A DNA stretch of 31,172 bases from Thainema sp. Lineage in GTDB: Bacteria; Cyanobacteriota; Cyanobacteriia; Phormidesmidales; Phormidesmidaceae. Made by a program: the position numbers and the translations under genes. Of the stretch, positions 1,092 through 3,946 are shown piece by piece. The stretch's first letter is position 1. Every line of letters starts with the position of its first letter. The stretch spans positions 1 through 31,172 of the forward strand of contig JBQLZK010000071.1 of the NCBI GenBank assembly GCA_052168235.1. Direction: 5' to 3'. A model generated the notes under the pieces. The model searched no databases and was not told the DNA's origin. It worked only from the letters and a program-made list of their open reading frames with translations.

Positions 1092-1121
1092 TTGACATCC
1101 CGTTGAAACTTGCTTTAATTG
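1092..1121 (+). promoter_or_regulatory. Possible sigma70-type promoter for the Thr leader/thrS transcript
   Basis: Perfect TTGACA at 1092-1097 followed by TGC-TTTAAT (1111-1119). The -10 element is imperfect. Confidence 0.3.
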
Positions 1122-1146: not shown

Positions 1147-1212
1147 ATGCAGCCGTCAATTCATTTGACTACCACCACTACGACCCAAACCACCCATCTG
1201 GGAGGGCTGTAG
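1147..1212 (+). CDS. Thr-rich leader peptide 1, MQPSIHLTTTTTTQTTHLGGL (21 aa, 8 Thr)
   Basis: ATG...TAG ORF with mixed Thr codons (ACT/ACC/ACG). Its last codons (GGGAGGGCTGT) are complementary to the 5' arm of the downstream terminator. Confidence 0.85.
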   Translation: MQPSIHLTTTTTTQTTHLGGL

Positions 1213-1243: not shown

Positions 1244-1284
1244 AAACGGCCCTCCTGATCACCATCGGGAGGGCTGTTTGTTTT
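1244..1284 (+). terminator. Attenuator terminator 1
   Basis: AAACGGCCCTCCTGAT-CACC-ATCGGGAGGGCTGTTT forms a 16-bp stem (2 G-U) followed by GTTTT. Confidence 0.85.
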
Positions 1285-1292
1285 AGGTACGT

Positions 1293-1518
1293 AGCCCTCA
1301 CCCCCAGCCCCTCTCCCACGGGAGCTACTGTTTATATATAAGTCTCCTAGACTTCGCTTCGAGGTTGAGATCCCCCCTAGCCCCCCTTAAAAAGGGGGGA
1401 ATTGACTCAAAGTTCCCCCTTTTTAAGGGGGATTTAGGGGGATCAGTCCGGGATTTAGAAGGACTTTCAGAATGTGTATAAACAGTAGCTCCCGTGGGAG
1501 AGGGCTAGGGTGAGGGCT
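1293..1518. repeat. Nested palindromic dispersed repeat (REP/MITE-like)
   Basis: ~47-bp terminal inverted repeats (AGCCCTCACCC...CTCTCCCACGGGAGCTACTGTTTATA / TATAAACAGTAGCTCCCGTGGGAGAGGG...GGGTGAGGGCT) enclose an inner GATCCCCC..CCCCCTTAAAAAGGGGG..CCCCCTTTTTAAGGGGG..GGGGGATC palindrome (~1368-1444). Confidence 0.85.
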
Positions 1519-1545
1519 TTCCGAGTAATGTTACTTTCTAAACCA

Positions 1546-1602
1546 ATGTTCAGAATTACAACCACTACGACGACTACCACTACCACGCCGGGAGGGACGT
1601 GA
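1546..1602 (+). CDS. Thr-rich leader peptide 2, MFRITTTTTTTTTTPGGT (18 aa, 11 Thr; alternative in-frame ATG at 1528)
   Basis: Ten consecutive Thr codons using all four ACN codons. The ORF ends GGAGGGACG-TGA, complementary to CGCCCCTC in terminator 2. Confidence 0.88.
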   Translation: MFRITTTTTTTTTTPGGT

Positions 1603-1632
1603 CGATTGCGGCTGCCAAAACGCATTTAATTC

Positions 1633-1668
1633 GCCCCTCAAGTGCTCTTGGAGGGGTTTTTGTTATTT
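1633..1668 (+). terminator. Attenuator terminator 2
   Basis: GCCCCTCAAG-TGCT-CTTGGAGGGGT hairpin (one bulge) followed by TTTTTGTTATTT. Confidence 0.8.
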
Positions 1669-1715
1669 CAAATTAGCCTGCCATTGACTCATATCAAGTC
1701 TGTGTATAAGAACCC

Positions 1716-1768
1716 GATTTATTTTTTATGAAACGTTTGCTCTGCAAACGTTTCATAAAAAATAAATC
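1716..1768. repeat. Perfect 25-bp AT-rich inverted repeat in the thrS 5' region
   Basis: GATTTATTTTTTATGAAACGTTTGC-TCT-GCAAACGTTTCATAAAAAATAAATC. Confidence 0.9.
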
Positions 1769-1846
1769 ATGGGTTTTCAACAAGACTTCATATCACATTA
1801 ATTTCGTTAATTTACCCACTCATTCATCCACTAAAGGAGAACTCAA

Positions 1847-3058
1847 ATGGCTGACCATCGCGATTTCGCAAGAGATATGGATTTGTTTCACTTTGAAGAA
1901 CACAGCCCCGGCATGGTGTTCTGGCATCCCCAGGGCTGGCAGCTTTTCCGTAATGTTGAAGACTTCATGCGCCAAGAGTATCAGCATCATGGCTTTGACG
2001 AAGTGCGATCGCCCGTTGCCCTGAGCCGATCGCTGTGGCTGCGATCGCAACATTGGCAGAAGTTCCGCAATGGTATGTTTGTCGTGGGCAGTGCTGAATC
2101 TGAAGCACCAGAGGTGGACGCGGCAGTGGCTGTAGCAGAACCCGACTATGCGCTGAAGCCGATGTCCTGTCCAGCTCATATCGCCATTTTTCAGGCCCAT
2201 AAACGCAGCTATCGGCAGTTGCCCATGCGACTGATGGAGTTTGGCATGTGTCACCGCAATGAGCTATCGGGAACGCTGTCGGGCTGTATGCGGCTGCGGC
2301 AGTTTGTCCAGGATGATGCCCATATTTTTTGCCAGCCGGGGGATGTGCCCCAGGAAATTCAGCGCTTTCTGAGCATGGTGCAGCGGGTCTATCGGGCGTT
2401 TGGCTATGAGCGATTTTCGCTACAAGTGTCCCTGCGACCTGCCCAGCGCTTGGGTTCAGATGAACTGTGGGATCGAGCAGAGAACATTCTAATTGAGGCG
2501 GTGCAGTTGCTCCAGATGGACTTTGAGCTGGCTCCAGGGGAAGGCGCATTTTATGGGCCAAAGCTGGAAATTGCTTTGCACGATCATCTCGGTCGCTCTT
2601 GGCAGTGCGGTACGTTTCAGGTCGATTTCAATATGCCGCGTTTGTTTGACCTCTCGTTTGTCAATGCCGCAGGCGAGCTAGAGCAGCCAATTATGCTGCA
2701 CCAAGCGGTTTTGGGTTCCCTCGAACGCTGGATCGGTATTCTGCTGGAGCACCATGACGGAATTCTGCCGCTCTGGTTGGCTCCCACTCAAATTGCCGTC
2801 GCGCCCATTTCGGATAAATCCGCAGACTGGGCCGAAGCGATTTTCCAGCGACTCAAACAGCGCGGTATCCGAGTTGAAATGTGTGATCGCAATGGCACAA
2901 TCGGCAAGAAAATCCGCGATTTATCCCGCCGCCGCGTCCCGCTCATCGCCATTGTGGGCGAACAGGAAAGCGAACAGCAAACGCTCAATCTGCGGCGATT
3001 AGGAGAAAACAAGCAGGAGGAGATATCGCTAATTGAATTGGAAAATCGGTTGAGATGA
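1847..3058 (+). CDS. thrS: Threonine--tRNA ligase, short form (catalytic and anticodon-binding domains only; no TGS/editing domain)
   Basis: Starts at DHR..DLF. Motifs KPMSCPAH, HRNELSG..MRLRQFVQDDAHIF, GEGAFYGPK, QCGT.Q.DF and HQAVLGSLERWIG, plus a C-terminal anticodon domain. SD AAGGAGA upstream. Confidence 0.95.
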   Translation: MADHRDFARDMDLFHFEEHSPGMVFWHPQGWQLFRNVEDFMRQEYQHHGFDEVRSPVALSRSLWLRSQHWQKFRNGMFVVGSAESEAPEVDAAVAVAEPDYALKPMSCPAHIAIFQAHKRSYRQLPMRLMEFGMCHRNELSGTLSGCMRLRQFVQDDAHIFCQPGDVPQEIQRFLSMVQRVYRAFGYERFSLQVSLRPAQRLGSDELWDRAENILIEAVQLLQMDFELAPGEGAFYGPKLEIALHDHLGRSWQCGTFQVDFNMPRLFDLSFVNAAGELEQPIMLHQAVLGSLERWIGILLEHHDGILPLWLAPTQIAVAPISDKSADWAEAIFQRLKQRGIRVEMCDRNGTIGKKIRDLSRRRVPLIAIVGEQESEQQTLNLRRLGENKQEEISLIELENRLR

Positions 3059-3154: not shown

Positions 3155-3946
3155 GTGGGCAAGGAAGTATATCGTTTAAATAAGCGTCGAAAGACTCTTG
3201 AAAAACTTCGCGAGTATTGGGAGCATCAAGAAAACATTCTCGTAGTTCATTATTCCTGCGAAAGCTTTCATGATAAATCTAACGATTCCACCTCAAGAAT
3301 TACTTCGATCGCTGTCAGAAACTTTGCTTCAGGTCAAACTGAATCATTTTCAATTCATAAGATTGCAGAACTGGAGAAACTTTCGAGTAATCAGATTGTT
3401 AATAACTATGATGAACTTGAACGAAAGATGCTGGATGAATTCTTCCAGTTTCTTTTAGAAAATCAGCGTTGCACATGGGTACATTGGAACATGAGAGATA
3501 TTAACTATGGATTTCAAGCACTTGAACATCGATATAAAGTTCTTGGTGGTCTTCCCACTCATCTAGGCGAAGATAGAAAACTTGACCTTTCTCGCACCTT
3601 AATCAACATCTATGGCAACAACTATATTGATCATCCTAGGCTTGGCAAGCTGATGGAAAAGAATAGGATTTCATCCATCAGCTTTTTATATGGAAAAGAT
3701 GAGGCCAAAGCCTTTGAGGCAAGAGAATTCGTTAAGCTCCATCAGTCAACTCTACGCAAAGTAAATGTAATTGCCAGTATCTTGGAAAGGACTTTACAAG
3801 ATGACTTAAAAACAAATGCAAAGTGGCATCAAACTCATGGCATCCATCCTAGAGCATTAGTTGAAATCATCACTGAAAATTGGATATGGAGCTTGGTTAC
3901 TATGACAGCCACTATCATCGGAATTACAAAATTCTTTTTAATGTGA
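3155..3946 (+). CDS. Hypothetical protein, possible degenerate 3'-5' exonuclease (RNase H-like) fold with C-terminal TM helix
   Basis: 263-aa AT-rich ORF. ERKMLDEFF and VHWNMRDINYGF resemble exonuclease-domain motifs; hydrophobic C-terminus WIWSLVTMTATIIGITKFFLM. Confidence 0.6.
   Translation: MGKEVYRLNKRRKTLEKLREYWEHQENILVVHYSCESFHDKSNDSTSRITSIAVRNFASGQTESFSIHKIAELEKLSSNQIVNNYDELERKMLDEFFQFLLENQRCTWVHWNMRDINYGFQALEHRYKVLGGLPTHLGEDRKLDLSRTLINIYGNNYIDHPRLGKLMEKNRISSISFLYGKDEAKAFEAREFVKLHQSTLRKVNVIASILERTLQDDLKTNAKWHQTHGIHPRALVEIITENWIWSLVTMTATIIGITKFFLM

Follow-up and report, generated by a model that had tools for sequence, protein, structure and literature searches.

The DNA analysed here is a contig of the cyanobacterium Thainema sp. 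(assembly GCA_052168235.1, contig JBQLZK010000071.1, forward strand, positions 1 to 31,172), and the whole of this stretch of 31,172 nucleotides (nt) is referred to as the window. Near its beginning lies a gene for a truncated threonyl-tRNA synthetase (ThrRS; gene thrS), preceded by two short open reading frames (ORFs) that are rich in threonine (Thr) codons and each followed by a predicted intrinsic terminator. The second of these two units, at 1528-1664, is the subject of the present analysis. The features of the region are as follows.

1092..1119, forward strand: putative promoter, with a -35 hexamer TTGACA at 1092-1097, a 16-nt spacer and TTTAAT at 1114-1119
1147..1212, forward strand: leader ORF 1, encoding the peptide MQPSIHLTTTTTTQTTHLGGL and a stop, with 8 Thr codons
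1200..1209, forward strand: predicted 5' strand of antiterminator 1, GGGAGGGCUG, matching the 3' arm of terminator 1 letter for letter
1244..1285, forward strand: predicted terminator 1, a 16-bp hairpin (1244-1279) with a GTTTT tail, -29.4 kcal/mol
1286..1527, no strand: palindromic multi-copy repeat of 242 nt, resembling a miniature inverted-repeat transposable element (MITE-like), exactly between terminator 1 and leader 2
1528..1602, forward strand: leader ORF 2, with ATG at 1528, the peptide MLLSKPMFRITTTTTTTTTTPGGT and the stop TGA at 1600-1602
1591..1602, forward strand: predicted 5' strand of antiterminator 2, GGAGGGACGUGA, covering the stop codon and the three codons before it
1604..1627, forward strand: small hairpin nested in the loop of antiterminator 2 in the nascent-RNA fold
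1633..1664, forward strand: predicted terminator 2, a GCCCCUCAAG/CUU-G-GAGGGGU hairpin followed by TTTTTGTT
1686..1800, no strand: member of a second palindromic repeat family, between terminator 2 and the ribosome-binding site of thrS
1834..1839, forward strand: AAGGAG, ribosome-binding site of thrS, 7 nt 5' of the ATG at 1847
1847..3058, forward strand: truncated ThrRS of 403 aa, with catalytic core and anticodon-binding domain

The Thr run of leader 2 occupies 1558-1587 and consists of ten consecutive codons (ACA ACC ACT ACG ACG ACT ACC ACT ACC ACG), followed by CCG GGA GGG ACG TGA, in which an eleventh Thr codon stands at 1597-1599. Thr accounts for 11 of the 24 codons of leader 2 and for 8 of the 21 codons of leader 1. 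A first-pass annotation of this DNA had already proposed an attenuator here, and on re-reading the sequence its coordinates for leader 2, its ten Thr codons and its pairing letters were found to be correct to the base. The genome contains four tRNA-Thr genes with three anticodons (UGU twice, CGU and GGU); the codons of leader 2 therefore sample all four Thr codons and all isoacceptors, as that annotation had stated. Chance is excluded as the source of the Thr-codon runs. More specifically, both strands and all frames of the 7.54-Mb genome hold six runs of at least six ACN codons and a single run of at least seven, which is leader 2, and two of the six runs are the two leaders, 390 nt apart.

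The end of each leader (GGA GGG, one further codon and the stop) copies the 3' arm of the terminator that follows it and can therefore pair with the 5' arm of that terminator (CCCUCC) as an antiterminator. For unit 1 the copy is exact, the ten-base GGGAGGGCTG being found both at the leader end (1200-1209) and in the 3' arm of terminator 1. For unit 2, GAGGGACG (1592-1599) and CGCCCCTC (1632-1639) are paired at seven of eight positions, with a mismatch between A1597 and C1634, and the terminator hairpin that would compete with this pairing, GCCCCUCAAG-ugcu-CUU(G)GAGGGGU at 1633-1657, has one bulge, a predicted energy of -13.7 kcal/mol and the U-run TTTTTGTT on its 3' side. Leader 2 is separated from its terminator arm by 31 nt, counted from the stop, and leader 1 by 32-38 nt. 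It is thus accurate that both leaders keep the Thr run, an ending of two glycine (Gly) codons, one codon and a stop, and a spacing of about 30 nt. The claim that they differ elsewhere also holds, in that no alignment is found outside the functional motifs, and the old duplication that the annotation drew from this is plausible.

Folding was computed on nascent RNA, that is, the RNA as present just before the 3' arm of the terminator, for 14 leader-2 and 16 leader-1 units. In every unit of both sets (14 of 14 and 16 of 16) the minimum-free-energy fold joins the GGAGGG of the leader end to CCCUCC in the 5' arm of the terminator, bearing out the pairing proposed for the window, with energies from -15.9 to -27.4 kcal/mol over the 30 units and a small hairpin in the loop of nearly all of them. 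In the window the antiterminator-2 strand pairs with 1631-1639 (-16.3 kcal/mol) and the antiterminator-1 strand with 1249-1257 (-25.4 kcal/mol). The UGA stop of leader 2 sits within the antiterminator helix, both in the window (1600-1603) and in orthologues; in most leader-2 units the helix runs on through the stop codon, GGAGGGACG.GA pairing with UC.UGUCCCUCC, and the clade of the window uses another register, GAGGG..GUGA with UCGC-CCCUC. The hairpin nested in the loop, predicted in 13 of the 14 folded leader-2 units with differing sequences, might possibly serve as a pause site for RNA polymerase or as a helper helix. When the stretch that would lie under a ribosome at the stop codon was masked (removal through stop+14), the remaining nascent RNA folded at 0 to -3.6 kcal/mol and is therefore no competitor to the terminators, which fold at -9.2 to -29.7 kcal/mol.

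The gene that follows is the kind of target the first-pass annotation had expected, a synthetase. Its 403-aa protein scores 464.2 bits against TIGR00418 (cut-off 383.65), covering profile positions 171-562 of 565, and contains two Pfam domains only, PF00587 (class II core) and PF03129 (anticodon-binding); neither TIGR00418 nor Pfam shows in it the N-terminal TGS and editing (second additional) domains that bacterial ThrRS has. From its first residues on it aligns to E. coli ThrRS 242-609, and its start coincides with that of the 401-residue catalytic-core chains 1evk and 1evl in PDB. Because the protein begins where the catalytic core of the E. coli enzyme begins, it is without the TGS and editing domains, and the full open frame of 407 aa, with a stop codon just upstream, leaves the same picture. 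Aligned to the E. coli enzyme, it keeps the motifs MSCPAH, QDDAHIFC and MLHQA, which we take to be those around the zinc ligands of E. coli ThrRS. A core truncation of E. coli ThrRS reportedly charges tRNA(Thr) and cannot hydrolyse Ser-tRNA(Thr), the mischarged product that carries serine (Ser). As a separate observation, residues ~82-99 (window 2090-2150) include an insertion of ~14 residues (the SAESEAPEVDAAVAVAEP region) relative to 6vu9, the best-aligning solved bacterial ThrRS.

Two full-length ThrRS genes (open frames of 625 and 607 aa) are present elsewhere in the genome, and in a quick tree this pair is placed within the two subclades that the full-length cyanobacterial enzymes form. 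The truncated proteins are grouped separately, in a clade with support 100 and a branch length of 1.47 that lies outside the full-length cyanobacterial group; its placement relative to Proteobacteria is weak (support 45). Recent truncation of one of the genome's two full-length ThrRS genes was rejected on account of this separate, long-branched clade in the quick tree. A role as a self-resistance gene in a biosynthetic cluster was also considered and rejected, there being no such neighbours within the window. Proteins with this pair of domains, 396-455 aa in length and 63-91% identical, form at least 115 clusters in public data, and wherever the source organism is named it is a cyanobacterium.

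The truncated thrS is distributed patchily. It is found in 7 of 60 relatives, in 14 of 172 other genomes of the family, in 2 of 400 genomes sampled from the phylum and in 13 of 400 sampled from the class (a search at the level of the order covered the same 173 genomes as the search of the family). These gave 25 loci, of which 24 have enough upstream DNA for comparison, locus L122 being cut by a contig end. The order of elements seen in the window is found again in relatives: a TTGACA promoter, then leader 1 with its terminator, leader 2 with its terminator, and the truncated thrS. Leader 1 and terminator 1 are present in 24 of 24 loci, representing several families of the phylum, and leader 2 with terminator 2 in 20 of 24. 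The TTGACA element lies 112-154 nt 5' of the leader-1 stop in all 24 loci. A consensus promoter scan omitted the corresponding site of the window (1092-1119) because its second hexamer is without A at position 2.

Conservation is concentrated in the parts that an attenuator would use. Among the last 18 codons, Thr occurs 4-9 times in leader 1 (24 loci) and 4-14 times in leader 2 (20 loci), with medians of 6 and 8 respectively, and all four Thr codons are used across the leaders. Everywhere the leader ends in two Gly codons, one codon and a stop, except in leader 2 of locus L118, where arginine-Gly (AGA GGG) is found; the leader-2 end GGAGGGACGTGAC is nearly invariant between families. The copy of the terminator 3' arm is placed exactly at the leader stop codon in 44 of 44 units, and the core pairs of the antiterminator are kept in 24 of 24 loci (unit 1) and 20 of 20 (unit 2). 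A hairpin with a T-run of at least five follows all 20 leader-2 units, and the terminator-1 hairpin is found in all 24 loci, its T-run being weak or absent in a few (e.g. L115, L086). The stop context of leader 2 is TGAC in 20 of 20 units, and that of leader 1 is UAA-G or UAG-G, with UGA-G in one locus (L115). The ATGTT start of leader 2 in the window is homologous to the starts of its orthologues. Third codon positions are more variable (1.14-1.18 bits) than first and second positions (0.69-0.95 bits), as is expected of translated leader sequence.

The leader-2 motif also tracks the gene. An exact match is found in 10 of 173 family genomes, nine of which carry the truncated thrS as well, and a reversed control pattern gave one hit. 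The tenth match (G021:C154:380-424, minus strand) lies 380 nt from a contig end, and no truncated thrS was found there at the threshold used; the gene has probably been cut off by the assembly. A pattern scan of metagenomes returned 118 loci, with a true Thr leader in three only (L169, L226 and L240), which are close to sequences already collected and were left out of alignments and counts. A genome-wide search of the Thainema genome itself revealed no further unit of the same design.

Two loci deserve separate mention. In L115 (genome G062) the terminators at 659-701 and 963-997, both of the form CCCCTCTAGG..ATTCCCGGAGGGG, resemble each other more than they resemble their counterparts elsewhere, a likeness that hints at gene conversion or re-duplication between the units; terminator 1 of this locus is without a T-run. 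In L086 (genome G014) leader 2 reads MTFTTTITTITTTIAPGGT and a stop, a mixture of Thr and isoleucine (Ile) that recalls the enterobacterial thrL leader. Each leader of the window has a single Ile, as the first-pass annotation had noted, and its argument from this single Ile to a synthetase as the target is weakened by the mixed Thr/Ile leader of L086.

The repeat at 1286-1527 is one of a family with 23 matches of at least 150 nt on 16 contigs (85-94% identity). From the stop of leader 1 to the stop of leader 2 there are 390 nt in the window and 162 nt in the same-genus orthologue, which lacks both palindromic repeats, and in most relatives the start of leader 2 is only tens of bases from terminator 1. 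Judging from these comparisons, the repeat is an insertion that lies outside the ancestral design, and the attenuator units evidently tolerate being moved apart. The second family (1686-1800) has 137 matches of at least 70 nt on 57 contigs. The stop of leader 2 and the ATG of thrS are 244 nt apart in the window, compared with 92-130 nt in most orthologues.

We consider it probable that 1528-1664 is the second of two serial, ribosome-mediated (leader-peptide) transcription attenuators that sense Thr-tRNA(Thr) ahead of an editing-less spare ThrRS. The first-pass annotation had likewise seen the second of two Thr-codon attenuators in this unit, and the comparative data (leader 1 at 24 of 24 loci, leader 2 at 20 of 24) fit that view. 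A Thr-rich short ORF, a predicted intrinsic terminator before the gene and a computed alternative antiterminator helix are all present; the region 1:2 helix of the classical four-segment scheme was not found, and the design is a two-state one. Transcripts from the single putative promoter (-35 at 1092) would arrive at thrS only after passing both terminators, at 1244-1285 and 1633-1664. With plentiful Thr-tRNA(Thr), a ribosome at the leader stop codon would hide GGAGGG, leaving the 5' arm free, so that the terminator would form and transcription would stop. With scarce Thr-tRNA(Thr), a ribosome would stall within the Thr run, 10-40 nt upstream, and the exposed GGAGGG would capture the emerging 5' arm and permit read-through. 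UGA-C is a slow termination context in E. coli, and the UGA-C stop of leader 2 would accordingly tend to keep the ribosome in place. A stall at the final Thr codon or the one before it would leave GGAGGG hidden, which may explain the length of the runs. To our knowledge, cyanobacteria are without Rho.

Two such units in series would multiply their read-through probabilities, so that basal expression would be very low and the response steeper. The spare synthetase would charge tRNA(Thr) and would be unable to clear Ser-tRNA(Thr); because Ser-tRNA(Thr) would go uncleared, the enzyme would be expected to be kept tightly off unless both full-length enzymes fail. Possible triggers are a shortage of threonine, a limiting supply of metal or a natural inhibitor of ThrRS.

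Several observations weigh against this interpretation. The first concerns covariation, for which the first-pass annotation had proposed that homologous leaders be aligned: RNAalifold detected none in the antiterminator segments, and compensatory changes occur in 0 of 6 and 0 of 7 core pairs. Because the GGAGGG:CCCUCC core is invariant, the helix is backed by conservation, position and energy and not by covariation, and GGAGGG could be conserved for another cause, such as the coding of Gly-Gly or a resemblance to Shine-Dalgarno sequences. In favour of the interpretation, the consensus terminator pairs do carry compensatory changes, at 5 of 12 (terminator 1) and 1 of 8 (terminator 2). Against chance, five of the nine copies of GGAGGG in the 31-kb window fall within 1201-1655, at leader ends and terminator arms, although the hexamer is not enriched overall (shuffle mean 12.4). 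Its use as the Shine-Dalgarno sequence of a downstream ORF was rejected, the sole candidate start being a GTG at 1599, only 2 nt away, in a frame that crosses the terminator.

The remaining difficulties concern folding, translation and the integrity of unit 2. The whole 148-nt leader-2 stretch folds no better than shuffled sequences (z -1.15), and naked full-length leader-2 RNA folds into the antiterminator; the switch therefore needs a ribosome close behind the polymerase, which would require close ribosome-polymerase coupling in a cyanobacterium. The fold of leader 2 contains neither an anti-antiterminator (region 1:2) helix nor an upstream partner for GGAGGG; in the fold of leader 1, in which the terminator is formed, the GGGAGGG region has no more than weak alternative pairs with the Thr codons 5' of it. 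Terminator 2 of the window is modest in strength and bulged, and a simple terminator scan, which picked up terminator 1 at 1244-1279, missed it because of the one-base bulge. No Shine-Dalgarno sequence was found 5' of either leader of the window, and the repeat insertion replaced the region 5' of leader 2, including an AAGGA that is present in relatives. Some lineages can dispense with leader 2, which is lost or degenerate at 4 of the 24 loci. A second hairpin with a T-run is all that remains of unit 2 in L088 and L119 (one genus), and L243 and L245 (genus g210) have decayed remnants of leader 2, with an ORF resembling MLLTMLSIMKTTPAITTAMTAAIFVR and a stop, GGAGACGTGGCG in place of GGAGGGACGTGACG and no terminator; as judged by comparison with the intact loci, these remnants show an ongoing loss of the second unit.

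Such losses invite the explanation that unit 1 works alone and that unit 2 is redundant or decaying, perhaps crippled in the window by the repeat inserted upstream of it. Universal retention of leader 1 in comparison with leader 2, the visibly degenerate leader-2 remnants in two loci, the far stronger terminator 1 of the window (-29.4 vs -13.7 kcal/mol) and the removal by the insertion of the AAGGA that precedes leader 2 in relatives would all be accounted for in this way. However, leader 2 is the Thr-richer unit (median 8 vs 6 Thr), its end GGAGGGACGTGAC scarcely changes between families, its hairpin and T-run of at least five are kept in 20 of 20 units, and the window's own leader 2 has the second-longest uninterrupted Thr run together with an intact terminator. 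We regard the redundancy of unit 2 as unlikely.

Less probable still, and in our view quite improbable, is that the hairpins act post-transcriptionally, on stability, processing or translation, with the Thr-rich ORFs being small proteins or untranslated sequence and no Thr-sensing switch existing at all. A hairpin followed by a U-run is the standard form of an intrinsic terminator, and here it is placed before the gene and not after it; the sensed amino acid matches the substrate of the downstream enzyme; and the copy of the terminator 3' arm stands exactly at the leader stop in 44 of 44 units. The leader peptides also vary freely outside the Thr run and the Gly-Gly-x end, which argues against a functional small protein. 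Set against these points are the antiterminator core without covariation, the unremarkable folding score of the whole region, and the statement of a 2016 survey that reliable data on attenuation in cyanobacteria were lacking (PMC4833913). Finally, that the Thr-codon runs sense nothing and are by-products of ACC/ACT repeat slippage or of the mobile repeats nearby is hardly credible: ACC and ACT do dominate the runs in relatives, run length does range over 4-14 codons and the window does have two multi-copy repeats in this intergenic region, but the window's run mixes ACA, ACC, ACT and ACG without a repeating unit, the runs are always in frame with the start codon and the Gly-Gly-x-stop end, they are conserved in loci without the repeats, which are absent from orthologous loci, and comparable ACN runs occur almost nowhere else in the genome.

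The attenuator reading can be placed beside known systems. The leader-peptide attenuators of enterobacteria include trpL, thrL and hisL, as well as pheM, which precedes the synthetase operon pheST. The present units have in common with them a short codon-rich ORF, a terminator before the gene, an alternative helix on the 5' arm of the terminator and, as proposed here, a decision taken by the position of the lead ribosome; in pheM-pheST the target is also a synthetase. Unlike the enterobacterial systems, the present locus has no match to the Rfam Thr_leader model and no helix between regions 1 and 2 was found; its antiterminator strand is contained in the final codons and the stop of the ORF itself, giving two states instead of four segments, and two complete units stand in series, in a cyanobacterial host, before a truncated paralogue in place of the housekeeping enzyme. 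A cmscan search of 1000-1900 against Rfam with E values up to 10 gave 45 weak matches, none of them at the gathering score and none to a leader or T-box; most were to models of microRNA precursors on the two palindromic repeats, spurious matches of this kind being caused by the palindromic repeat at 1686-1800.

In Streptomyces coelicolor, Vecchione and Sello are said to have found in 2010 that the gene of an auxiliary, antibiotic-resistant TrpRS is under ribosome-mediated attenuation, and this spare TrpRS is reportedly induced upon inhibition of the main enzyme. For Streptomyces lividans, parts of a published account propose leader peptides before alaS, thrS, trpS and leuS, the thrS leader having two Thr codons only and no clear terminator (PMC8079986). 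These systems share with the present one a leader peptide with cognate codons before a synthetase gene and, for TrpRS, a spare copy as the target. In contrast to the S. lividans thrS leader, as it appears in those parts of the account, the leaders described here contain 8 and 11 Thr codons and are followed by clear terminators; they are also arranged in tandem where the Streptomyces leaders are single, and belong to another phylum.

In Bacillus subtilis, thrZ is a normally silent spare copy. According to sections of a study of Bacillota, ThrRS is the only synthetase with tandem T-boxes, two or three in series, and the ThrRS genes so equipped include B. subtilis thrZ (PMC12452182). As far as those sections describe them, tandem T-boxes have in common with the present locus serial sensors of uncharged tRNA(Thr), each with its terminator, before a ThrRS gene. 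They are unlike it in that the RNA of a T-box binds tRNA directly, without a ribosome or a leader ORF, and no T-box match was obtained here; by analogy, the likeness is one of logic (convergence) and not of family.

A second ThrRS is also found in Anabaena, for which portions of a report describe the spare enzyme T2 as full length, editing-impaired and off until the main enzyme T1 fails, with repression by the zinc regulator Zur and editing supplied in trans by the other paralogue (PMC4787780). As far as those portions go, the two cases share a cyanobacterial host with more than one ThrRS and a spare enzyme deficient in editing, which here too would be held back until the main enzymes fail. 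The present enzyme, unlike T2, is without its whole N-terminal half and belongs to a clade outside both full-length cyanobacterial groups, and its gene is preceded by Thr leaders, whereas in the same portions T2 is placed under a protein repressor. Full-text literature searches, from which subscription journals were mostly outside, returned no account of Thr leaders before cyanobacterial thrS or of the truncated ThrRS class. A two-state leader-peptide attenuator doubled in series in a cyanobacterium, before an editing-less spare ThrRS, would thus appear to be a variant not yet described.

A broader proposal, to which we incline by only a little, is that leader-peptide attenuation works in cyanobacteria and through its conservation testifies to coupling, and that the core-only ThrRS is a third, undescribed class, error-prone and brought into use in emergencies through a two-stage 'AND' gate. 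If this is true, conservation of the attenuators would be genetic evidence of close transcription-translation coupling in cyanobacteria, and the two-stage gate on uncharged tRNA(Thr) would converge with the tandem T-boxes on ThrRS genes of Bacillota. That serial tRNA(Thr) sensors were reached twice, by T-box RNAs and by leader peptides, suggests that a spare ThrRS needs unusually tight, switch-like control, plausibly because an editing-less enzyme would put serine in place of threonine. Being compact, conserved and easy to mutate, the locus would be a natural reporter of whether cyanobacterial ribosomes follow RNA polymerase closely enough to govern termination, and it bears on how cyanobacterial cells cope with failing charging of tRNA(Thr). 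An antiterminator strand made of the last codons and the stop may also be simple enough for an engineered amino-acid sensor.

A genome-wide scan for amino-acid-run leaders with terminators gave six candidates, namely the two Thr leaders, two with leucine runs and two with serine runs. Both leucine-run candidates were rejected: the one on contig C4 lies inside an ABC-ATPase-like ORF, and the C112 candidate precedes a palindromic repeat and is 740 nt from a CHASE2-GGDEF-EAL gene. Directly 3' of thrS stands a 263-aa ORF (3155-3946) without a Pfam match. The motif GCGATCGC occurs in 8,963 copies in the genome, as is typical of cyanobacteria.

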